From NCBI GenBank assembly GCA_963746905.1, contig CAVVCY010000003.1, positions 949,014 through 1,013,013 of the forward strand: a stretch of DNA of 64,000 bases. Reading direction: 5' to 3'. Every line of letters begins with the position of its first letter. Position 1 is the first letter of the stretch. Shown here piece after piece: positions 7,930 through 64,000 of the stretch. Position numbers and translations under genes: made by a program. Source of the DNA: an uncultured Acidobacteriota bacterium. Its GTDB lineage: Bacteria; Actinomycetota; Acidimicrobiia; Spongiisociales; ZC4RG35. The notes below the pieces were generated by a model. It was given only the letters and a program-made list of their open reading frames with translations. It was not told the origin of the DNA and ran no database searches.

Positions 7930-8850
7930 ATGTCGCCACTGGTCCTCCTGGCTGCGACGGCTTCGGCGCTGGCCGTAGGGCTCCTGGTCCATCATCTGGT
8001 CCCGCCGCCTCGATCGCTGGCGTCCCGCATCCATCCCTACCTTGCGCCCGCCCGGTCGATGTCACGGTCGCACCGCGCCGGCGGCCCGATTTCCGAGGTG
8101 TTCGGACCGATTGTTCGCCATCTGGCTGAGACCCTGGGGAGGTTGCTCGAGAGGTCAGGCGACCAGGTGACGATTCTGAAACTGCGGCAGGCGGGCTGGT
8201 ATCGCCAGCTCCCAGAGGAGGAGATGGTTTCCGCCTATCGCGTCACGCAATTGAGGTCGACAGCGTTGGCGATTGGACTTGCGGTGGTGGCGGGATCGGC
8301 GATCGGTGCATCGTTGATTCAGCGGCTGATATTGATTGGCCTCGGCTTGCTCATCGGAGCGACCAGGCAGCGATCCAAGATCGAGAAGGCGATCGAGACC
8401 CGCAGGGAATTGATGCGGATCGAGGTGTACACCGTCAATCAGCTCCTGGCCATGCGGGTGCGGGCGGGAGGTGGTGTCGTCCACGCGGTCACTTCCACGG
8501 TCGCTCGGGGACGCGGTGAGGTCATCAACGAGTTGGCGGACGCTCTGCGGCTGCATCGCGCAGGATGGAGAGCCGGTGACGCGTTCCGCAGGATCGCCGA
8601 GCTCACTCCCGAGCCGTTCTGCAGCCGGACCTATCGGCTCCTTGCCTCTGCCGAAGAGCGGGGCGCTGATCTAGCCGGGGCCTTGCTCGATCTAGCGGAA
8701 GATGTTCGGGAGACACGGCGTGAATCGATCAAGCGGTCGGCAACCAAGCGGCGGGCGGCGATGCTGGTGCCAACTATCGCCATCCTGGCCCCGGTCTTGA
8801 TCCTGTTCGTTGCGGCACCGCTTCCAAGTTTGATCACGGGCTGGCGATGA
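7930..8850 (+). CDS. tadC: type II secretion system F family protein TadC
   Basis: ORF 7744..8850 trimmed to Met63 (MSPLVLLAATASALAVGLL) at 7930; GTG 7924 (GTGA overlap with tadB) is an alternative. T2SSF-like domain plus C-terminal TM helices. Confidence 0.8.
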   Translation: MSPLVLLAATASALAVGLLVHHLVPPPRSLASRIHPYLAPARSMSRSHRAGGPISEVFGPIVRHLAETLGRLLERSGDQVTILKLRQAGWYRQLPEEEMVSAYRVTQLRSTALAIGLAVVAGSAIGASLIQRLILIGLGLLIGATRQRSKIEKAIETRRELMRIEVYTVNQLLAMRVRAGGGVVHAVTSTVARGRGEVINELADALRLHRAGWRAGDAFRRIAELTPEPFCSRTYRLLASAEERGADLAGALLDLAEDVRETRRESIKRSATKRRAAMLVPTIAILAPVLILFVAAPLPSLITGWR

Positions 8851-8863
8851 AAGGAGGCCGACC

Positions 8864-9043
8864 ATGCCCGATGTAAACCAACTACTGCGCTCGATGCGCG
8901 ACGACGACCGGGGGCTAAACACCGCCGAGCTAATGGGGAACGCCGCCCTGGCGATCGCTGCCTTGGTGGTGATCTGGGGAGCACTCCAGGCGCTCGGGGT
9001 CGACATAGTCAGTTGGATCCGCACCTCGCTGATCGGAGGGTGA
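8864..9043 (+). CDS. flp: Flp-type pilin, actinobacterial DUF4244-like (59 aa)
   Basis: Below the 60-aa cutoff of the ORF track. AAGGAGG at 8851-8857, ATG at 8864. Product: MPDVNQLLRSMRDDDRGLNTAELMGNAALAIAALVVIWGALQALGVDIVSWIRTSLIGG. It has a G/xxTAE processing-like motif followed by a hydrophobic helix. The TGA overlaps the GTG of the next gene. Confidence 0.7.
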   Translation: MPDVNQLLRSMRDDDRGLNTAELMGNAALAIAALVVIWGALQALGVDIVSWIRTSLIGG

Positions 9044-9408
9044 GCGAGCGGGGGGTCACCTCGGTCCAGTTCCTCTTGGCGGGGGCGCTCTCGCTCGTCC
9101 TCTTCCTGGCATTCGCCAACTTGATCGTCGTCCAGTACGGCCGAGGCGCGATTCGCTCCGCCCTCGACCAAGGAGCGCGGGTCGGTGCTGTCACCGGCGC
9201 CCTCGAAGGTTGCGAGCAACGGGTCAAAGCGGTTCTCAGCCAAATCCTGGGAGGCGATATGGGTGAATCGACTGAGGTCGACTGCACGATCCACGGAGAC
9301 CTGATCGTTGCTCACGGCAGCGCCGTCTTTCCATCGTGGACTCCGTTTACCTCAGACTTTGTTGTCGACCTCCAGGCCCAGGCCACGCTGGAGCCAAATC
9401 GTGCCTGA
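9040..9408 (+). CDS. tadE: TadE-like pseudopilin
   Basis: ORF 9013..9408 trimmed to GTG 9040 (GTGA overlap with flp). N-terminus SERGVTSVQFLLAGALSLVLFLAFANLIV is the TadE N-terminal motif. Confidence 0.75.
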   Translation: MSERGVTSVQFLLAGALSLVLFLAFANLIVVQYGRGAIRSALDQGARVGAVTGALEGCEQRVKAVLSQILGGDMGESTEVDCTIHGDLIVAHGSAVFPSWTPFTSDFVVDLQAQATLEPNRA

Positions 9409-9829
9409 GAGAGGCCACGCCGCCGTCGAGTTCGCTCTCGCGGTTGGCCTCTTACTGCTCCCGGTCGCGATCACGGTGCTCGCGTTTGGGCCATGGTCGG
9501 AGCGACGCGTAGTGGCCGAGGCCGCGGCCGCCGAGGCGGCAAGGACTGCGGTGGTCTCTCTGGATCTCAGCCGGGGAAGCCAGGTGGTCTCGGAGATTGG
9601 CGGCAACCACGGCCTGGGGTCGGAGTCGATTCAGCTCGGTTGGTGTGGCTCTGAGCCTGGTCCGGCCGAGATCTCGATCGCCGGGTGCTCGCTGGACCGC
9701 GGGTCGGAAGTGGTGGCAGAAGTGCGGATCTGGGCACCCCTCATCACCACGCCTTGGGGCCCGGTGGGTGGGCTGTGGGTCACCGGGGTGCATGCCGAGC
9801 CAGTTGATCTCTACCGGAGCCTGGGATGA
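9401..9829 (+). CDS. TadE/TadF-like pseudopilin
   Basis: ORF 9308..9829 trimmed to GTG 9401, overlapping the previous stop. PERGHAAVEFALAVGLLLLPVAITVLAF is the TadE-type motif. Confidence 0.7.
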   Translation: MPERGHAAVEFALAVGLLLLPVAITVLAFGPWSERRVVAEAAAAEAARTAVVSLDLSRGSQVVSEIGGNHGLGSESIQLGWCGSEPGPAEISIAGCSLDRGSEVVAEVRIWAPLITTPWGPVGGLWVTGVHAEPVDLYRSLG

Positions 9830-10242
9830 GGGACGACCGGGGATCGATGACCATCTGGATGCTCGGTCTCTCGGTCCTGCTGCTCCTGTTCGGCGGGCTC
9901 GCCATCGACTTTTGGAGGGCGCTGGCGTTGCAGCGCGAGTTGTCTGCGATGGCCGACTCGGCGGCTATCGCCGCCGCCTCGGGCATCGACGAGGTTCGCT
10001 ATCGGGAGTCCGGCGAAGTGGTTCTCGACCCGTTCCGCGCCAGGGAGCTCGGGGTGGCGTCGATCGAGGAACAGGACGTCGATCCGCTCTCGTTTCAGGT
10101 CGCCACTGACGGCGCCGGGCTCACGGTGAGTGTCATCGTGGTCGACGCTGTCGAACTTGGTCTTCTCGGCCTGCTTGTGGATCAGACGGAGCCTCTGACT
10201 GTAAGGGCTGAGGCAACGGCTTCACCCCGTCTTCTGCCCTGA
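9826..10242 (+). CDS. TadG-like / Tad N-terminal domain pilus assembly protein
   Basis: DRGSMTIWMLGLSVLLLLFGGLAIDFWRALALQRELSAMADSAAIAAA matches the TadG-type N-terminus. ATGA overlap with the previous gene. Last gene of the operon. Confidence 0.65.
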   Translation: MRDDRGSMTIWMLGLSVLLLLFGGLAIDFWRALALQRELSAMADSAAIAAASGIDEVRYRESGEVVLDPFRARELGVASIEEQDVDPLSFQVATDGAGLTVSVIVVDAVELGLLGLLVDQTEPLTVRAEATASPRLLP

Positions 10243-10313
10243 CCGCAACTTCGCACTGACCCGGTGATCGGGTAACCTTGCGTTCCCCGCATTGCCTTCG
10301 GGTGTGTGCGCGT

Positions 10314-10388
10314 TCGGGGGTGGTGTAATAGGTAACACGACAGGTTCTGGCCCTGTTATTGAGGGTTCGAGTCCTTCCCCCCGAGCCA
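10314..10388 (+). tRNA. tRNA-Gln (anticodon CTG)
   Basis: Folded by hand. Acceptor TCGGGGG/CCCCCGA with the U1:A72 typical of tRNA-Gln, D stem GTGT/ACAC, anticodon stem ACAGG/CCTGT with loop TTCTGGC, T arm GAGGG-TTCGAGT-CCTTC, discriminator G, encoded CCA. Confidence 0.85.
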
Positions 10389-10413
10389 CGGCCAACGCGA
10401 GTTGGCCGAGTCT

Positions 10414-10489
10414 GGTCCCGTCGTCCAGAGGCCTAGGACGCCGGCCTCTCAAGCCGGAAACGCCGGTTCGAATCCGGTCGGGACTGCCA
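10414..10489 (+). tRNA. tRNA-Glu (anticodon CTC)
   Basis: Acceptor GGTCCCG/CGGGACT, D stem GTCC/GGAC, anticodon stem CCGGC/GCCGG with loop CTCTCAA, T arm GCCGG-TTCGAAT-CCGGT, discriminator G, encoded CCA. Confidence 0.9.
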
Positions 10490-10676
10490 TATCTAGCCGC
10501 CGTGCACCAAGCGGTCATACAGGCCCCGGAACATCGCCGCCGACCTGCCCAAGAGGTCTCGAATGACCTCGGTTGATTGCTCTACGAGCCAACGCCAGCC
10601 GAGGATCAACTCATTCATGCGTTGATAGATACCCCGGTCGGCGTGCGCCGATACCAGGCGACGATTCAGATCTCTC

Positions 10677-11093
10677 TCAGACCCGAGCGACCTTCGGATT
10701 GGAACCGGCCGCCACGTCGACAAAGTCGGGGATTGTCTTGAGGACCTCCTCGGCTCCGGCCGGGGCGTAGATGGCGAGGATCACCATCGTCTCGTAGCTG
10801 GTGTTCAGAGTGGAGTGGAAGACACCTTTCGGGATCCACACCGCATCCCCAGGAACAACGGGAAACGGCTCACCGTCGTCGATCATCTGGTTTCCCCTGC
10901 CGGCGAGGATGTAGAGGATTTCATCCGACTCGGGGTGGTTGTGACGATCGTGGCCCTTGCCCGGGAACAAGATGACGTGCATGAGGCTGCAATCGCCGTC
11001 ATCGGTGTTGTCGGTGGCGATGAGGGGCTTGATGATCCCCCAGTCGAATGTCCAGGTCGGGATCGAGTTGCGGTCTACGAGCTTGGCGGGCAT
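10677..11093 (-). CDS. cupin domain protein
   Basis: GHDRHNHPESDEILYILAGRG ... PGDAVWIPKGVFHS is the two-motif cupin signature. Confidence 0.8.
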   Translation of the reverse strand: MPAKLVDRNSIPTWTFDWGIIKPLIATDNTDDGDCSLMHVILFPGKGHDRHNHPESDEILYILAGRGNQMIDDGEPFPVVPGDAVWIPKGVFHSTLNTSYETMVILAIYAPAGAEEVLKTIPDFVDVAAGSNPKVARV

Positions 11094-11108
11094 TTTCTTC
11101 CTTGCTGT

Positions 11109-11930
11109 CTAGATGGTCATTGACTTGAAGCGGCGCATGTTCTCCGTCATCGCCACCTCGGTGGGCAGACGCTCCATCGATGACGCTCCGAAGAAGCCGA
11201 CGATGCCTTCGGTGCGGTCGAGGACATATTGAGCATCCTCGGGCTCGGCCAAGGGGCCCCCATGGCAGAGGACCGTGATGTCGGGGTTCACCTTCACCGC
11301 CGCATCGCGCATCGCCTGGATCTCGACGACACAGTCGTCGAGCGTCTTGGCGGTGTGGGCTCCGATAGTGCCTTTTGTGGTCAAACCCATGTGGGGTACC
11401 AGCACGTCGGCCCCCGCTTGAGCCATGGCGACCGCATCGTCGGGGTCGAACACATAGGGCGCCGTGACCAGGCCGAGGTCAGCGGCTTCCCTGATCATGT
11501 CGACTTCCAGGCCGTAGCTCATGCCGGTCTCCTCCAGGTTGGCGCGGAAGGTCCCGTCGATCAGACCGACTGTCGGAAAGTTCTGCACTCCGGCAAAGCC
11601 GGCATCGATCACCTGGCGGAGGAATCGGCCCATTATCCGGAAGGGATCGGTCCCACACACTCCGGCCAGAACCGGGGTGTCCTTCACGATGGGGAGCACC
11701 TCTTGGCCCATCTCCATCACGATCGCGTTGGCGTCGCCATACGGGAGCAGGCCGGCCAGCGATCCCCGGCCCGCCATGCGATAACGGCCAGAGTTGTAAA
11801 TGATGATTAGGTCGGCTCCGCCGGCTTCGGCGCACTTCGCCGACAGCCCGGTGCCGGCTCCGGCGCCGATGATCGGGTCGCCGGTCGCAACGGTCGCCTT
11901 CAATTTTGCGCGAGCCTCCTCACCTGTCAT
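11109..11930 (-). CDS. PEP-hydrolase-like TIM-barrel protein (TIM-br_sig_trns family, partner of UPF0261)
   Basis: ORF 11109..12002 trimmed to Met25 ([10 protein letters not shown]) at 11930, giving an ATGA overlap with the upstream UPF0261 gene. [49 protein letters not shown] and [13 protein letters not shown] match this family. Confidence 0.8.
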
Positions 11931-57444: not shown

Positions 57445-57693
57445 ATGAGCGCCAAACGCCAGCAGATCATCGACCTGGCGCTCGGCATCGTCGGGGGCGC
57501 GGTGGTCGGCGCGATAGTGGCCGTGAACTTCATCATCACAATCGGGATTGGCTATGACGTCACCCTGGCCGATGTTTACCGGGAGAGCCCTCCAGCTGGA
57601 GTTCTCACCACCGCCATCCTGGTTGCTGGCCCCATAATCGGCGTCGTGCTGATGCGAAAGCTGAGCAGACGTCGCAACGGTTCCTCGCCGTGA
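57445..57693 (+). CDS. small two-helix membrane protein
   Basis: ORF track. Two hydrophobic helices (LALGIVGGAVVGAIVAVNFIITIGIG and VLTTAILVAGPIIGVVLM) and a basic tail. Confidence 0.5.
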   Translation: MSAKRQQIIDLALGIVGGAVVGAIVAVNFIITIGIGYDVTLADVYRESPPAGVLTTAILVAGPIIGVVLMRKLSRRRNGSSP

Positions 57694-57729
57694 CAGTGGT
57701 CGTGATCTGGAATCGAAGGAGGATCGAAG

Positions 57730-57757
57730 GAGGCGAGCCATCTGAATGGCTCGCCTC
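57730..57757. terminator. bidirectional terminator hairpin
   Basis: GAGGCGAGCCAT-CTGA-ATGGCTCGCCTC, a perfect 12-bp stem, between the convergent genes ending at 57693 and 57778. Confidence 0.7.
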
Positions 57758-57777
57758 TGCATCGGTCGCGTTCACTA

Positions 57778-58212
57778 TCAGGATGCCTTGACTTCGATCG
57801 GGATGTGATGCGGCTCGGTTGTCCTCTCCTCAGGGAGCGATACTCGAACCTTGAGGATGCCTTTGTCGTAATCGGCCATCACTTTGTCCGGGTCAACTCC
57901 AGTCGGGAGTGGGATCCGACGCATGAACGTCCCATGGGCCCTCTCGTGAACATAGCGACTGTCCTCGGAGACCTCGGTCTCCTCGGTCTTTTCGCCCTTG
58001 ATCGTGAGAATGTCATCTTCGACAGAGATCTCGACGTCCTTATCGGGGTCGATGCCCGGCAATTCGGCCGTGACGATCAACTCCCCTTCTTGCCTGAAGA
58101 TGTCGATCGAGGGTCGGAATGCAAAGTCGTGCTCCCCGATGAGGCGGGGGAAGTTGAACAGCCGCCATTCCTTGTCGAGGTCGAAGAACGGTGTCCATAC
58201 CTTGAGTTCCAT
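57778..58212 (-). CDS. Hsp20/alpha-crystallin family small heat shock protein
   Basis: ORF 57778..58344 trimmed to Met45, preceded by AAGGAGGTG. Alpha-crystallin domain: PSIDIFRQEGELIVTAELPGIDPDKDVEISVEDDILTIKGEK ... GTFMRRIPLP ... GILKVRV. Confidence 0.9.
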   Translation of the reverse strand: MELKVWTPFFDLDKEWRLFNFPRLIGEHDFAFRPSIDIFRQEGELIVTAELPGIDPDKDVEISVEDDILTIKGEKTEETEVSEDSRYVHERAHGTFMRRIPLPTGVDPDKVMADYDKGILKVRVSLPEERTTEPHHIPIEVKAS

Positions 58213-58403
58213 TTGGTGATTCACCTCCTTTCTCGGGCCTGACCCTTGAGCAGCAGGCGGCCCGGATCCAGCACGGGTGTCATTCGCGATGATCGGACTT
58301 GGCGAATTCCTTGACCAGAGCCAAACGGCCCGATTCGTCGCCATTGACGTGAGTCTCGATGAGAGGGCCTATGGCGACGGGACGGGGACTTCCGACCGTA
58401 GAT

Positions 58404-58422
58404 GACGGGAGAAGATCCCGTC
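58404..58422. promoter_or_regulatory. perfect inverted repeat GACGGGA-N5-TCCCGTC upstream of usp
   Basis: Seen directly, 29 nt upstream of the usp ATG (58451), in the 238-bp region between divergent hsp20 and usp. Could be an operator or a leader hairpin. Confidence 0.3.
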
Positions 58423-58450
58423 ACCGTTCAGTCGACCAAGGGAGATCCCC

Positions 58451-58855
58451 ATGATTGTCGTCGGAGTGGACGAGTCGTCGGTTGCGAAAAGGGTTCTGGC
58501 TAGGGCGATTGACGAGGCCGCCTGGCGGGGAGCGGAGCTCCATGTCGTCAACGTCTATCAGCTGCCCTACACCTACGTCGAGATACCAGTTGACTATGTG
58601 GCGATAGCCGAAGGGCACCACAGCGCGGTGTGGGAACCGCTCGCGGCCCAACTCTCCGAGCCGAAGGTCGAAGTGCTTCGAGTCGAACTCGAGGGCTATC
58701 CAGCGGAAGCTCTCGTGTCTTATGCCAACGACATCGGCGCTTCACTGTTGGTGGTCGGCACTCGTGGCCGTGGCGAGTGGGGAGCGCTGATCCTGGGGAG
58801 CACCAGTCATCGTGCCGTTCATCTCGCCGACTGCGATGTGCTGATCGTCAAGTGA
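58451..58855 (+). CDS. universal stress protein
   Basis: MIVVGVDESSVAKRVLARAIDEA ... LLVVGTRGRGEWGALILGSTSHRAVHLADCDVLIV. Confidence 0.9.
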   Translation: MIVVGVDESSVAKRVLARAIDEAAWRGAELHVVNVYQLPYTYVEIPVDYVAIAEGHHSAVWEPLAAQLSEPKVEVLRVELEGYPAEALVSYANDIGASLLVVGTRGRGEWGALILGSTSHRAVHLADCDVLIVK

Positions 58856-58874
58856 CGATCGCACGGTTCCGGGG

Positions 58875-59150
58875 TCAGCCAAGTAGGACGGGATACTCGC
58901 GAATGTTGATTCGGCTGCCGTCTTTGGCCGAGTATTCCCACACGATCAGTGCACCGACCTGGTCACGATCGACTTCGTAGGGGACTGAGACTCTCCAGTC
59001 GCCCCAGCATCCGGTGCCACAACTGGCCATGACCGTGTTCTCAAACAGAGGCAGACCATCGTCATTGGTGAGCCTGACCTGAGAAACGGCTTCGAAGACG
59101 TTGCTCAGACTCCGGACCTCGATCGGGCTCGTCTGCGGCCGAACCCACAA
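58875..59150 (-). CDS. Gmad2-like immunoglobulin-fold domain protein (single domain, no signal peptide)
   Basis: SNVFEAVSQVRLTNDDGLPLFENTVMASCGTGCWGDWRVSVPYEV...GALIVWEYSAKDGSRINIREYPVLL resembles the Gmad2 domain. The TTG start lies 21 nt after the ATPase stop. Family call is moderate. Confidence 0.5.
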   Translation of the reverse strand: MWVRPQTSPIEVRSLSNVFEAVSQVRLTNDDGLPLFENTVMASCGTGCWGDWRVSVPYEVDRDQVGALIVWEYSAKDGSRINIREYPVLLG

Positions 59151-59171
59151 ACGTTGACAGGGAACCGTTGA

Positions 59172-61475
59172 TCACGTCTCCTGCAGGGAGAAGTACAACT
59201 CCTCTTCCTGGTCGAAGTGAAGTCGGAGGATGGCGTGGAGGCTGTACAGGGTGCGACGGAGGTCCAGCACGTCGGCGGGCTCCGGCCCAGTCTCGGGGAG
59301 GTCGGCCAACTGCCTTTGGTAGACGTCGACAAGGTGGAAGATCTCCCGGTGGGTCCGGCTCATCAGGGACATCGGGTCGTCTCCGGGGAGGACGGCCGAT
59401 ACCTGTGGGTAGATCTCCTTCTCGTCTTCAGCCTCGTGGGGGAGGATCACATCCACCAGGAGTCTCCGTGTCTGTTCCAGGTCTCGTCTGGCTTCCTCAG
59501 GGGCCAGGGTGTCGAGCAGATCTGCAGTGTCGCGAAGCGAATCGAGCTTTGGAATCAGTTCGTCATGTTCGACGCGGAGACGATGGGACAACTCAGGAGA
59601 GATCTTCGGCCCGCTCTCTGACGGGGTCTTACCGCCCAGCGCTCGGAGAGCGTTGGTGATCGAGAGGAAGTCGATGGCCTCCTGAATCAGTGCTCCGGCG
59701 ATCGGGGCCAAGAGCCCAAGGGCGGCCACGGCCATTGCCATCAGCGAAAGGCCCATCCCGATCACCATGCTCTGCACGGCAATCCGTCGCGACCGCTGTG
59801 CGATCCCGATGGCATCGACCAGACGTTGCAGCCGATCGACTATCAGAACCACCCCAGCGGCCTCCGACGATGCGGTCGCCCCGCGTGCTCCCATGGCCAC
59901 GCCCACGTCCGCCGCGGCCAGGGCGGGAGCATCGTTGATGCCGTCCCCCACCATCGCCGTCGTTCCCTGGGCTCGCAGCCCTTCGAGGGCGGCGACCTTC
60001 TCCCGTGGCGTGGATTCGGCAAGGACGTCGTCAACACCTATTGCCGTGCCAACGGAACGAGCCGCATCGGGGTGGTCTCCCGTCGCCATGACGATTCGCT
60101 GCACGCCAATCCGGCGCAGTGCCCGGATGGTGTGGGCAGCGTCAGGCCGGATCGTGTCGTCGAAGGTGATCGCGGCCGTGACTTTGCCATCGATCGCGAC
60201 GTAGACAGCGAGCGGTGCCACCCGCATCAATCGCCGGCGAAAGTTGGCGATCTCGATTGGCTCCGGCTTGCCATCCAGCAACCAAGCCAGCCGTCCCACC
60301 TCGACATGCGTGTCTCCGACCATGGCCCCTACGCCGGATCCCGCAACCTCGGTGACGTGCTTGGGCATTTCGATTGAGAGCCCACGATGGCGTGCGGCCT
60401 CGACGATTGCCCGGGCCAATACGTGTGAAGACGTTTGATCCACCGAGGCGGCGAGGCTGAGGAGCTCGCTTTCGTCGACTCTGGTGTCGAAGCCCACGAT
60501 CGAGCGCAAGGTCGGCTTGCCAACAGTGACGGTCCCCGTCTTGTCAATGAGAACATTCTTGGTCTGGGCAAGCGTCTCCAACGCGGCTCCTCCACGGAAG
60601 ACGATCCCGCGATGGGCCCCACGCGAAATCCCGGAGACGACAGCAATGGGAACCGCCAGCAACAACGGACACGGGGTGGCTACAACCAGGACGGCCAGTG
60701 CCCGGATGGGGTCACCGGAGACAGCCCAGGACAAAGCTGAGAGCCCGAGAGCCAGCGGGACGAACCAGCCGGCCCATCGATCGGCGAGGCGGATCGAGGG
60801 CGACCTCGATTCTCGTGCTTCTTGCACCAGCCGGATGATTCCGGCATATGTGCTGTGCTGGGCATCCGCGGTGGCAAGTAGCTCAAAGGCGTCGGCGGCA
60901 TTGACGACTCCGCTGCTGACCAGGTCGCCGTTCTTGCGTTCGACCGGCATTGGCTCCCCGGTGAGAGCCGACTCGTCAATCAAGGCAGATGGGCTAAGTA
61001 CCACGCCGTCGACCGGGATCACCTCGCCTGCCTTGATCAGAACCCTGTCACCACGGCCCACCGAGTTGATGTCGACTTCCTCGATCTTGTGATCGCTGAT
61101 GACATGCGCGAATCTGGGCACTCTCCCGAGCAGCGTGGTTAGCTCCCTCTCGGCTCTTCCTGCGGCGAACTCCTCCAAGAACCGGCCGGTGGCCAGCATG
61201 AGCCCGATGATCGCTGCCGTCAGGTATTCGCCGAGGGCCAAAGCCCCTGACACCGCGAGGACCGCGATGATGTCGACTCCCGGTCTGCGGAGCCTGATCT
61301 TGACGATGATTTCCCGGATCAATGGCAACACCGGCACCACCGCAACCGCGGTGAAGGCGACATTGGCCGCGGTTTCGTAGTCGAGGACCGCGAGGAGGCC
61401 GCCGAGACCCAGACCGGCAGCCGTGCCGATTAGCAACCAACGGGTGGACCGTTCAGAGCTGAGCTCTTCAGTCAA
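59172..61475 (-). CDS. heavy-metal P-type ATPase, P1B-5-like, with C-terminal hemerythrin-like domain
   Basis: ORF 59172..61967 trimmed to TTG 61475, overlapping the upstream stop (TTGA). The first 164 codons of the ORF overlap the SRPBCC gene and look like noise. Motifs: TGEP, membrane ATPCPLLLAVP (TPCP), DKTGT, GDGINDAPAL. No N-terminal metal-binding domain. The C-terminal ~140 aa carry HHE-type motifs (VEHDELIP, LPHEAEDEKEIYP, THREIFHLV, LHFDQEEELYF). Confidence 0.85.
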   Translation of the reverse strand: MTEELSSERSTRWLLIGTAAGLGLGGLLAVLDYETAANVAFTAVAVVPVLPLIREIIVKIRLRRPGVDIIAVLAVSGALALGEYLTAAIIGLMLATGRFLEEFAAGRAERELTTLLGRVPRFAHVISDHKIEEVDINSVGRGDRVLIKAGEVIPVDGVVLSPSALIDESALTGEPMPVERKNGDLVSSGVVNAADAFELLATADAQHSTYAGIIRLVQEARESRSPSIRLADRWAGWFVPLALGLSALSWAVSGDPIRALAVLVVATPCPLLLAVPIAVVSGISRGAHRGIVFRGGAALETLAQTKNVLIDKTGTVTVGKPTLRSIVGFDTRVDESELLSLAASVDQTSSHVLARAIVEAARHRGLSIEMPKHVTEVAGSGVGAMVGDTHVEVGRLAWLLDGKPEPIEIANFRRRLMRVAPLAVYVAIDGKVTAAITFDDTIRPDAAHTIRALRRIGVQRIVMATGDHPDAARSVGTAIGVDDVLAESTPREKVAALEGLRAQGTTAMVGDGINDAPALAAADVGVAMGARGATASSEAAGVVLIVDRLQRLVDAIGIAQRSRRIAVQSMVIGMGLSLMAMAVAALGLLAPIAGALIQEAIDFLSITNALRALGGKTPSESGPKISPELSHRLRVEHDELIPKLDSLRDTADLLDTLAPEEARRDLEQTRRLLVDVILPHEAEDEKEIYPQVSAVLPGDDPMSLMSRTHREIFHLVDVYQRQLADLPETGPEPADVLDLRRTLYSLHAILRLHFDQEEELYFSLQET

Positions 61476-62155
61476 CGACGGCGGCTTGTCGGAGCGGTCC
61501 CGTGCGTCGAATCTGCAGCCAATACCCGGCTCCGTATGCCGCTGAGCATTTGGTGGGACATGATGAAGTCGGCGGGAATGATTGCCAATCGGTAAATCGC
61601 GAGCAGCCACCACGGAGCGGCATTCCCGCGGCAGCGAAAGATCAACCGGCTGCGTTCTCCGCCAAGGTCGTCGATTGAGAACGACCAGGTCCAGTCCAGC
61701 CGTGCACCGTAATTCTCCCGCCAGGACTTGGGCAGGTGCGTCGTGGAGTGGAGAACCAGGCTTCGGTCCGTCTCCATGCCCTCGATTATGAACCCGCACT
61801 CGCTTTCCGGGGGGCCGTCCGGGATGAAGTCTCCAATCGCTCGATCTTGGAGGGCGGGGAGGATCTGGGTAGCGGCCGGCCAATTCGCTGGAAACAGGAT
61901 CCGATCTACCCAGGGAGCTGTGTACCACCCTCCCTGATGCCAGCCCATTTGAATCAGCCACGGCCACACCTCTCCCGGCGACGCGTCAATGGTGGTGGCG
62001 TGCGTGGTCAGAATCTGTGGGTGGGGCACAATCTCATCGCCAGGCATCAGTGCCCTTCTCTCCGCGCCGGTGGCCCCCCACGTCCTCCCGAGCCATTGCA
62101 GGAGGAAATAGGAGGCCACGGCGACGAATAGGGCAAAAGTCGATTTGCGTGTCAT
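61472..62155 (-). CDS. SRPBCC (START/polyketide-cyclase-like) family protein with N-terminal membrane anchor
   Basis: N-terminal hydrophobic helix (FALFVAVASYFLLQWL), then IDASPGEVWPWLIQMGWHQGGWY, typical of SRPBCC proteins. Confidence 0.65.
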   Translation of the reverse strand: MTRKSTFALFVAVASYFLLQWLGRTWGATGAERRALMPGDEIVPHPQILTTHATTIDASPGEVWPWLIQMGWHQGGWYTAPWVDRILFPANWPAATQILPALQDRAIGDFIPDGPPESECGFIIEGMETDRSLVLHSTTHLPKSWRENYGARLDWTWSFSIDDLGGERSRLIFRCRGNAAPWWLLAIYRLAIIPADFIMSHQMLSGIRSRVLAADSTHGTAPTSRRR

Positions 62156-62298
62156 GAACCTACGTCGACGCTATGACCCGAACTTCCGGCCTGGCAGGGC
62201 CGTTAGGCCCGGATCGCCACGGCAATACGGTCCAAATCGCCGATTCCGCCGCCTTTTGGCCCTACTGACGACTCTGGGCCATTCGTAGCGTTTTGGGT

Positions 62299-63576
62299 AT
62301 GCGAACCAGAGAGCCCTTGAAGCGTCTTGTTGTCCTCGGCGCTGGCACGGCTGGCACCATGATCGTGAACAAACTTCGGCCGCGGCTGGCGGTTGAGGAG
62401 TGGGAGATCATTGTGGTGGACCCTGCGCCCTCTCATCTCTATCAACCGGGTCTGTTGTTCGTCCCTTTCGGCCGTTACGAGGCTGACGAGCTTCGCAAAC
62501 CAACCAGAGACCTCCTCTGCGACGGAGTGGAACTGGTCACCGAGCCAGTGGAACGGGTAGATGTCGACGCCAGCCAGGTCCAACTGGCCGGTGGTCGAAC
62601 CATTGACTTCGACCAGTTGGTGATTGCGACCGGAACCCACGCCCGACCGGACATGACGCCTGGAATGGACGGCCCCGAGCTCGGGGACACCATCCACGAG
62701 TTCTATACCCTGCCTGGGGCCGAGGCCCTTCGCTGGAAGTTGGCACTTTGGGACGGCGGGCGGTTCGTGGTCCACATCACCGAGCTTCCGATCAAATGCC
62801 CGGTGGCACCGCTCGAATTCGCCTTTCTTGCCGATGACTACTTCAGACGGGTCGGGATGCGTGATCGGGTCGACATGACCTTTGCCACGCCCCTGTCTGG
62901 CGCTTTCACCAAGCCGATCGCCTCGGGGCTTCTGGGCGACATGCTCGAGTCACGGAATATCCGCGTTGAGCCTGATTTCTACGTGGAGCGGATCGACGAC
63001 CACGCCATCGTTTCTTATGACGAGCGAGTCATCCCCTTCGACCTTCTCGTCACCGTGCCGCTGAACATGGGGGCGGACTTCGTCGGCCGGTCTGGCCTCG
63101 GTGACGAGTTGAACCATGTCAGAGTCGATCCCCACACCTTCCTCGCGGACGGCTGCGAAAACGTGTTCGCCATCGGTGACGCCGCCGCACTTCCTATCTC
63201 GAAGGCAGGGTCGGTGGCCCACTTCGCCGTCGACGTCTTCGTCGAGAATTTCATGGATCACATCGTCGGCCGACCTATGACGCGGGCGTTCGATGGGCAT
63301 GCCAACTGCTTCGTCGAGTCGGGTGCAGGCAAGGCGCTGCTGATCGATTTCAACTACGAAACCGAGCCTCTGCCCGGTACCTACCCCGTTCCGGGGTTAG
63401 GGCCGCTGCGCCTTCTCAAGGAGACAAGGCTCAACCACCTGGGCAAGCTCGCGTTCAGGCCCATCTACTGGCACCTGCTGCTCCCGGGTCGACGACTTCC
63501 GGTTCCAAATGCGATGTCAATCGCCGGAAAGGAGATACCGACCGGTCAACCACCAAGAGAGGACGTGAACATATGA
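62299..63576 (+). CDS. sqr: sulfide:quinone oxidoreductase-like NAD(P)/FAD-dependent oxidoreductase
   Basis: RLVVLGAGTAGT FAD motif, IKCPVAPLEFAF and HANCFVESG cysteine motifs, IGDAAALP. Start taken at ATG 62299 (ORF-track TTG at 62293). Confidence 0.8.
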   Translation: MRTREPLKRLVVLGAGTAGTMIVNKLRPRLAVEEWEIIVVDPAPSHLYQPGLLFVPFGRYEADELRKPTRDLLCDGVELVTEPVERVDVDASQVQLAGGRTIDFDQLVIATGTHARPDMTPGMDGPELGDTIHEFYTLPGAEALRWKLALWDGGRFVVHITELPIKCPVAPLEFAFLADDYFRRVGMRDRVDMTFATPLSGAFTKPIASGLLGDMLESRNIRVEPDFYVERIDDHAIVSYDERVIPFDLLVTVPLNMGADFVGRSGLGDELNHVRVDPHTFLADGCENVFAIGDAAALPISKAGSVAHFAVDVFVENFMDHIVGRPMTRAFDGHANCFVESGAGKALLIDFNYETEPLPGTYPVPGLGPLRLLKETRLNHLGKLAFRPIYWHLLLPGRRLPVPNAMSIAGKEIPTGQPPREDVNI

Positions 63577-63887
63577 CGGTTGCAACCATGCGAGGACGCG
63601 AGCTCCACGTCGACGCCGAGGGGTTCCTCACGGACTCCACGGAGTGGGACGAGAGCCTGGCGGAGACCCTTGCCACCAACATCAGCCTCGAGCTGACCGA
63701 ACGTCATTGGGCGGCCATCAACTTCGCCCGGTCGGACTTCGCCGCAAACGGCGAGGCTCCGACGCTCCGTCGCATGGCGACAGCGGGTGGCATCCCCACG
63801 AAAGAAATGTTCGAACTGTTCCCCAAAAAGCCGGCGAAGAAGCTGGCCTATGTGGCCGGCCTCCCCAAGCCGGTCGGATGCGTCTGA
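63573..63887 (+). CDS. TusE/DsrC/DsvC family sulfur relay protein
   Basis: GFLTDSTEWDESLAETLA ... ELTERHWAAINFARSDF ... C-terminal GLPKPVGCV. ATGA overlap with sqr. Confidence 0.85.
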   Translation: MTVATMRGRELHVDAEGFLTDSTEWDESLAETLATNISLELTERHWAAINFARSDFAANGEAPTLRRMATAGGIPTKEMFELFPKKPAKKLAYVAGLPKPVGCV

Positions 63888-63897
63888 AGGAGGCATC

Positions 63898-64000
63898 ATG
63901 ACCATGACACTGGAAGCACCAGTACCGGTGTTCGATGACGAGTCGACCACACGGAAGCTGGCGATCATCTGCTCCAAGGGCTCGCTCGACATGGCGTACC
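63898..64000 (+). CDS. DsrE/DsrF-like family protein, 5' fragment (runs off the window)
   Basis: GAAGGAGG, then ATG at 63898. MTMTLEAPVPVFDDESTTRKLAIICSKGSLDMAY has the KLAII.SKGSLD.AYP start seen in DsrE-family proteins next to sqr/tusE genes. Confidence 0.55.
   Translation, partial: MTMTLEAPVPVFDDESTTRKLAIICSKGSLDMAY

Follow-up and report, generated by a model that had tools for sequence, protein, structure and literature searches.

A hemerythrin-bearing P1B-5-type ATPase between an SRPBCC-fold gene and a Gmad2 remnant: a probable case of local genome history

The stretch of DNA considered here (the window) comprises 64,000 nucleotides from an uncultured soil bacterium (contig CAVVCY010000003.1, positions 949,014 to 1,013,013), and towards its end three open reading frames (ORFs) are packed on the minus strand. 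These are an SRPBCC-like gene of 227 amino acids (aa) taken from the ORF listing (61472–62155), a gene for a P1B-5-type heavy-metal P-type ATPase, hereafter the pump, of 767 aa counted from TTG and identified with Pfam and NCBIfam (59172–61475), and an ORF of 91 codons, also with a TTG start, that matches Pfam Gmad2 (58875–59150). A preliminary description of this DNA had presented them as a three-gene unit, in which the stop codon (TGA) of the SRPBCC gene and the candidate start codon (TTG) of the pump share bases as TTGA (61472–61475, minus strand) and the Gmad2 ORF follows the pump. All three ORFs are present at exactly the coordinates it gave, and both the overlap and the spacer of 21 nt between the pump stop and the TTG of the Gmad2 ORF (59151–59171) can be read directly from the sequence. 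The further suggestion, that the two neighbours are partners of the pump, is not upheld. The pump is in all likelihood a regular P1B-5 hemerythrin pump, flanked not by dedicated partners but by an SRPBCC gene that deletion has brought beside it and by the remnant of a Gmad2 gene. As far as sequence comparison goes, the three-gene unit arose through local genome history within one narrow clade and is not a conserved module.

Neighbours of the pump and of the SRPBCC-like gene across genomes

Pumps of this kind were surveyed in one genome per GTDB species, using an alignment of the last two transmembrane (TM) helices and the hemerythrin domain as the query. Of 569 confirmed loci the 80 best were taken, all of which entered the model searches described below; the counts given here refer to the 79 in which the hemerythrin end of the pump is present. 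The loci come from Acidimicrobiia, other Actinomycetota (Actinomycetes, Mycolicibacterium, Prescottella), Chloroflexia, Thermoanaerobaculia and Methylomirabilota, as well as Ralstonia, Paraburkholderia, Myxococcus, Polyangium and Steroidobacteraceae. Family-specific hidden Markov models (HMMs) run on six-frame ORFs provided the primary evidence on neighbouring genes, with Pfam counts as secondary evidence.

The full order of SRPBCC gene, pump and GerMN/Gmad2 gene is found at one of the 79 loci, that of the relative L004, in which the C-terminal segment of the pump corresponding to the query is 97% identical to that of the window. The SRPBCC-family HMM matches only L004 (co-directional, directly upstream) and L043 (downstream, convergent), and the HMM and phmmer searches for GerMN-Gmad2 proteins match L004 only. 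Among the nearest called neighbours on each side, no Pfam family occurs in more than 7 of 73–74 loci, the commonest being cytochrome b561 (in seven Ralstonia species), universal stress protein (Usp) and haem-binding domains. The 25 most frequent families, which make up the Pfam neighbour summaries, include neither Gmad2 nor Germane nor any of the SRPBCC clan. All-versus-all clustering of six-frame ORFs around the pumps, which is noisy (spurious high-GC ORFs, seven near-identical Ralstonia loci), gave no dominant neighbour family.

The survey was also made in the other direction, starting from the SRPBCC-like gene. At 80 metagenomic loci (L084–L163) no co-directional ATPase gene was found downstream of it, and its commonest neighbour is a tandem paralogue (20 of the 80). 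The pump locus of Sinorhizobium meliloti, in the order Usp, Usp, PNPOx, BON, P2-type ATPase, pump and then a hydrolase gene, contains neither an SRPBCC nor a Gmad2 gene. Checked across genomes in this way, SRPBCC and Gmad2 genes show no conserved linkage to P1B-5 ATPases, and the partnership put forward in the preliminary description comes down to a single pump locus, in a very close relative, and to none of the SRPBCC loci. In the ~80 species surveyed, no gene is a constant partner of the hemerythrin-bearing P1B-5 pump.

The two junctions and the upstream SRPBCC-fold protein

The 91-aa product matches Gmad2 (PF10648) at 4.5e-15, with 56.1 bits against a cut-off of 25.7. It had been described as a single Gmad2 domain without a signal, which is literally true, but it has this form through loss of the 5' part of the gene, as the full-length gene of its relatives reveals. 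Four close relatives share synteny with the window (L001, L004, L164 and L165; pump DNA identity 84–92%), and all four have 733–805 bp between the pump stop and the Gmad2 domain that are missing from the window. In L164 this region and the Gmad2 part form one intact Germane+Gmad2 gene of 307 aa. The orthologue in L001 (2132–3076) has a lipoprotein signal (LVLATAACGSG, with the lipobox LATAAC), a Thr/Ser-rich linker and a GerMN domain, and the lipobox signal is also found in the L164 orthologue. In the L001 gene (metagenome-assembled genome GCA_040877165.1) a stop codon in frame (SASM*ARLAQ) takes the place of the Phe of homologues; decay of the gene may not be confined to a single member of the clade, or the stop may be a sequencing error.

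The deletion scar, placed by blastn against these four relatives, lies between the pump stop codon and the Gmad2 remnant (59134–59171, minus strand), and the alignments from its two sides overlap at 59134–59148. Independent public soil metagenome contigs span the junction (X1 over 59079–59582 with 0 differences, X2 over 58991–59700), and because they were assembled independently an assembly artefact is ruled out. Further contigs from these soils break at positions 59133 and 59171, running on into undeleted sequence. Judged from these alignments, the 91-codon ORF is the 3' third of a GerMN-Gmad2 lipoprotein gene left after a deletion of ~740 bp, and it is most likely a non-functional pseudogene fragment. 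More distant GerMN-Gmad2 homologues adjoin hsp20, usp, glycosyltransferase and phosphoenolpyruvate (PEP) synthase genes with no P1B-5 pump beside them, so the GerMN-Gmad2 gene belongs to the hsp20/usp side of the locus and not to the pump.

A second deletion would account for the overlap on the other side of the pump. In L164 a P2-type cation ATPase gene (8689–11298; Cation_ATPase_N, E1-E2, Hydrolase and Cation_ATPase_C) stands between the SRPBCC gene and the pump, split into three calls that are probably owed to long-read frameshifts. L004 and L165 have 28 nt between the SRPBCC gene and the pump ATG (MSTERFTRW), and the final ~18 nt of the SRPBCC ORF in both align with the 3' end of the L164 P2-type ATPase ORF, a leftover to be expected of a deletion that fused two ORFs. 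The window differs again: its SRPBCC tail is collinear with that of L164 up to the stop, after which the sequence jumps to codon five of the pump. The ATG used by the relatives reads CTC here, and the sole in-frame start upstream is the TTG within TTGA. Two independent losses of the P2-type ATPase gene, one of them making the TTGA overlap, would be the most parsimonious history. The ancestor of this genus-level clade would have had the P2-type gene between the SRPBCC gene and the pump, and the window lineage would have lost it along with the pump's own ATG and upstream spacer, leaving the pump to start at the TTG that overlaps the SRPBCC stop codon. This polarity is supported by S. meliloti, where the same order of P2-type and then P1B-5 ATPase occurs.

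The naming of the upstream gene as SRPBCC finds support at the level of the fold and none in sequence profiles. Its product has no match in Pfam (even at E ≤ 10), in NCBIfam or, by sequence, in the PDB. At least 496 homologues were found at E ≤ 1e-3, chiefly from Acidimicrobiia and other Actinomycetota; most are unnamed, and for a few the source gives 'SRPBCC family protein' or 'YndB with AHSA1/START domain' as the name. A 40-sequence alignment of the family has 39 invariant columns, many of them Trp, and an AlphaFold2 model built on it is predicted with good confidence (predicted local distance difference test 89.8, predicted template modelling score 0.85). The model has a helix at residues 3–25, strands at 48–56 and 121–180, a long C-terminal helix at 182–218 and, at lower confidence, a helical insert at about residues 70–110. 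The N-terminal helix is hydrophobic and has charged residues on both sides. All 50 matches listed by Foldseek against the PDB are SRPBCC-type folds (probability 1.0, E down to 9e-6), among them AHSA1-like, CoxG, Bet v1/norcoclaurine synthase, PYR/PYL and polyketide cyclase-like structures. The helix-grip fold of the superfamily, an antiparallel sheet around a long C-terminal helix, is present in the predicted structure, which thus supports an SRPBCC/START-like domain only as far as the fold is concerned.

The SRPBCC-fold family has hundreds of members and is covered by no Pfam or NCBIfam model. One member, P0014 (393 aa), is a two-copy fusion. Members are normally found in unrelated surroundings, frequently next to a paralogue, and one that is 69% identical to the window protein lies among PspC/LiaF, two-component and multicopper-oxidase genes.

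The pump as a P1B-5 ATPase

It is still debated what P1B-5 ATPases transport and what their hemerythrin domain does. The features that define the group were drawn from three reviews (PMC9388753, PMC13460109, PMC4932525), which list a PCP (TPCP) motif in the metal-binding transmembrane helix (PMC13460109, PMC4932525) and describe a hemerythrin-like C-terminal domain with a ligand set of the H / HxxxE / HxE / HxxxxD type (PMC9388753). In Pfam the window pump matches E1-E2_ATPase (1e-44), Hydrolase (3.7e-26) and Hemerythrin (PF01814, 4.8e-10; residues 630–763, 59187–59588, minus strand), and in NCBIfam the heavy-metal P-type ATPase model TIGR01525 (6e-156), with scores under the equivalog cut-offs of the ZntA, CopA and CadA-type models. 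Eight TM helices are predicted from a reading of the sequence, and the first hydrophobic helix starts at about residue 13; Pfam finds no HMA or other metal-binding domain at the N-terminus. The TPCP motif of the membrane metal site (residues 267–270, 60666–60677) lies inside VATPCPLLL (264–272). It is followed by the DKTGT phosphorylation motif, also read from the sequence (residues 311–315, 60531–60545), and, in the last TM helix, by QEAIDFLSITNALR (residues 598–611, 59643–59684), for which the form in the subfamily is QExIDxxxIxNALR; all three motifs are on the minus strand.

These features are shared widely. PF01814 and TPCP occur together in all of the 120 best pump homologues, while among 76 full-length relatives, S. 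meliloti included, ATPCP is present in every one and QExIDxxxIxNALR in 74. The hemerythrin ligand motifs are kept (EH, PHExxD/E, HxE and LHxxQE), and the His/acidic ligand columns are invariant when the window pump is aligned with 11 distant relatives including S. meliloti. The final motif in the window pump reads HFDQE (HxxxE), not the published HxxxxD spacing. A search of plasmids with tblastn found a hemerythrin-bearing pump of 774 aa on an S. meliloti megaplasmid (pB), to which the window pump is 47.1% identical over 743 aa. We take this protein, from S. meliloti LMB1, to be the orthologue of Nia, an assumption and not a match by accession.

The TPCP motif, the lack of an N-terminal metal-binding domain and the C-terminal hemerythrin domain had all been pointed out in the preliminary description and are borne out by the sequence and by Pfam. 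Its assignment of the ATPase to P1B-5 also holds, given the Pfam and NCBIfam matches, the shared motifs and the S. meliloti pump. By these comparisons the classification stands, and the pump is a new member of a known family, that of the hemerythrin-bearing P1B-5 ATPases. The analogy with S. meliloti Nia makes export of divalent metal of the Fe2+/Ni2+ type from the cytoplasm its most likely function, and its hemerythrin domain may sense O2, redox state or iron.

Competing readings, genomic context and known systems

Several points weigh against reading the neighbours as products of local history. The survey sampled the 80 best-matching loci in each direction, and the calling of neighbouring genes, based on GC content at third codon positions (GC3), was crude, with the gene upstream of the pump in L004 mis-called. 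The direction of the P2-type ATPase event, deletion as opposed to insertion, is argued by parsimony and not proven. In every close relative the SRPBCC gene directly precedes some P-type ATPase. Furthermore, an SRPBCC-like gene is convergent to a hemerythrin-bearing P1B-5 pump at a distance of ~100 bp in L043 (1666–4408) and L126 (983–4016), which count as one lineage because they are syntenic and 78% identical in DNA, and in L087 (6016–12239) it is 4 kb away from one; this proximity exceeds what is expected of two arbitrary genes. Finally, the frame of the Gmad2 remnant is open and its ratio of nonsynonymous to synonymous substitution rates (dN/dS) is low, making a residual function possible. 

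It is scarcely credible that the three genes form a dedicated module in which the SRPBCC protein is a chaperone for a substrate or lipid ligand and the pump has the Gmad2 protein for an accessory subunit. The genes do lie close together on one strand, overlapping by 4 nt at one junction and 21 nt apart at the other, and their order is the same in the near-identical relative L004, but the arrangement is absent from 78 of the 79 pump loci and from S. meliloti, a co-directional SRPBCC–pump pair is absent from all 80 SRPBCC-family loci, and in L164 a P2-type ATPase gene stands between the two. The Gmad2 ORF, moreover, is truncated, and its full-length orthologues are exported lipoproteins, which would therefore lie on the opposite side of the membrane from the soluble domains of the pump. 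It is also very improbable that the 91-aa Gmad2 product is functional, whether as a newly cytoplasmic protein or appended to the pump by read-through of the TGA. The ORF is intact and in the pump's frame, with the TGA and 7 codons before its TTG (59148–59174), and its dN/dS against orthologues is 0.14 (L164) and 0.08 (L001), compared with 0.06 between the intact copies; the values for the remnant come from few sites, and L165 is excluded owing to frameshifts. Such low values may simply reflect a recent deletion, and sharing a frame with the pump has a one-in-three chance, so that the read-through arrangement is probably fortuitous. The TTG start has no recognisable ribosome-binding sequence, the export signal is lost, the cysteine pair (CGTGC) would face a reducing compartment, and at positions invariant in the orthologues the window alone has changed G to S in GLSNVFEA, M to R and E to R.

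A looser connection has somewhat more in its favour and is still unlikely. The SRPBCC membrane protein would be linked to P-type ATPases, whether P2-type or P1B-5, in a clade-restricted or loosely recurrent way, for example through a hydrophobic ligand or lipid that it senses or delivers and that modulates the pumps, with the linkage often broken. An SRPBCC gene followed by a P-type ATPase gene occurs in all close relatives (P2-type in L164; P1B-5 in L004, L165 and the window), the proximity recurs independently in L043/L126 (convergent) and L087 (4 kb), and the SRPBCC and pump genes of the window are probably co-transcribed, and the pump may depend on translational coupling. On the other hand, ~95% of the sampled family members and pumps show no such proximity, its orientation is inconsistent where it does occur, and the family's most frequent neighbour is its own paralogue; charges flank the hydrophobic helix on both sides, so the protein could lie on either side of the membrane. 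That this unmodelled SRPBCC-fold family has a real, if loose, functional connection to P-type ATPases is improbable. If it were true, the SRPBCC-fold protein might, for instance, bind a lipid or small ligand and modulate stress-induced cation pumps, and this would explain both the position of its gene before a P-type ATPase gene throughout the clade and its reappearance in L043/L126 and L087. Genuine accessory proteins of P1B-5 ATPases would be a useful lead, given the debate over the substrate and the hemerythrin domain. On the preferred reading, of a regular pump beside a deletion-juxtaposed gene and a remnant, the SRPBCC and Gmad2 neighbours are not such a lead, which spares the effort of co-folding and co-expression.

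The locus lies in a clade-specific stretch of stress-type genes, usp, hsp20 and sqr-dsrC-dsrE. Beyond the Gmad2 remnant are an ORF for a Usp (58451–58855, plus strand), which is syntenic with the GerMN-Gmad2 gene in relatives and has an equivalent relative position in L001 and L164, and a gene for an HSP20 small heat-shock protein (57778–58212, minus strand), whose start was placed at MELKVW from orthologues of 144–145 aa. On the far side, divergent from the SRPBCC gene, are genes for a sulfide:quinone oxidoreductase-like protein (Pyr_redox_2) and a DsrC/TusE-like protein (62293–63887, plus strand); the same genes are Pfam Pyr_redox_2, DsrC and DsrE in L164 and L165. The divergent set of sqr-like, DsrC-TusE-like and DsrE-like genes (window 62293–64000) is kept in L164 (5741–7828) and L165 (5754–7842), and in L164 a NiFe-hydrogenase cluster that has a cyclic nucleotide monophosphate (cNMP)-binding regulator comes after it. 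A scan of 57600–62500 for promoter and terminator consensus sequences returned background level only. The idea of a hypoxia regulon was also considered and rejected: the DosR-type box GGGACNNNNGTCCC has 4 matches against 7.5 expected, none of them near the locus.

The preliminary description had also suggested a redox or O2/NO-responsive metal-handling module, given usp/hsp20 and sqr nearby. A link to stress or redox genes has weak support: a minority of pump loci have Usp genes or second P-type ATPases in the vicinity, with no fixed operon. Usp genes were found at 10 of the 79 pump loci by a single-sequence search, and at more by clustering; second P-type ATPases were found at 15, of which seven are strong P2-type matches. 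These seven lie within ~7 kb of the pump (L007, L008, L011, L032, L034, L060 and L075), and in L164 (8689–11298) and S. meliloti (L167, 2826–5513) a P2-type gene (Cation_ATPase_N/C) stands directly upstream of it. Such recurrence is consistent with placement of the pumps in stress islands, and points to a loose pairing of P2-type and P1B-5 ATPases that is apparently undescribed. A small positive result of the survey is that P1B-5 hemerythrin pumps are loosely enriched near Usp genes and second (P2-type) ATPases, as in S. meliloti.

As regards the assemblies themselves, L004 (CAVRWT010000005.1) is the closest genomic relative, with 90–92% DNA identity across the locus. It is labelled 'uncultured Acidobacteriota bacterium', while all other close relatives are labelled Acidimicrobiia or Actinomycetota, and the label of its bin may be wrong. 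In L164, L165, L168, L169 and L170 (ENA contigs ERZ250394xx–ERZ250395xx) many genes are divided into two to six calls, for example the pump in L165, the P2-type ATPase in L164 and PEP synthase in L168. These split genes are not to be read as pseudogenes, because the pattern is typical of long-read frameshifts.

Each of the three products can be set beside known proteins. The 91-aa ORF has the Gmad2 domain (PF10648) of the GerMN (Germane, PF10646) and Gmad2 lipoproteins of Gram-positive bacteria, and is 74–83% identical to the C-terminal domain of the GerMN-Gmad2 proteins of close relatives; unlike those lipoproteins, it has neither a lipoprotein signal nor the linker nor any of the GerMN domain. 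The predicted model of the upstream protein matches the helix-grip fold of the SRPBCC superfamily (PDB 3q64, 2ns9, 3q63, 2pcs, 6rp3, 7wa9 and PYR/PYL) at 8–15% identity and template modelling scores (TM-scores) of 0.34–0.44 by query length, but it has in addition the N-terminal hydrophobic helix and the helical insert, and no sequence-profile similarity to the superfamily. The pump, like Nia (SMa1163) of S. meliloti and A0LQU2 of Acidothermus cellulolyticus, the other characterised P1B-5 pump of this kind, bears a hemerythrin-like domain at its C-terminus, and it has the QExIDxxxIxNALR motif in common with the hemerythrin-bearing pump of S. meliloti. Unlike Nia and A0LQU2, it belongs to an uncultured Acidimicrobiia-like soil bacterium, and its TTG start would have been made by a local deletion.

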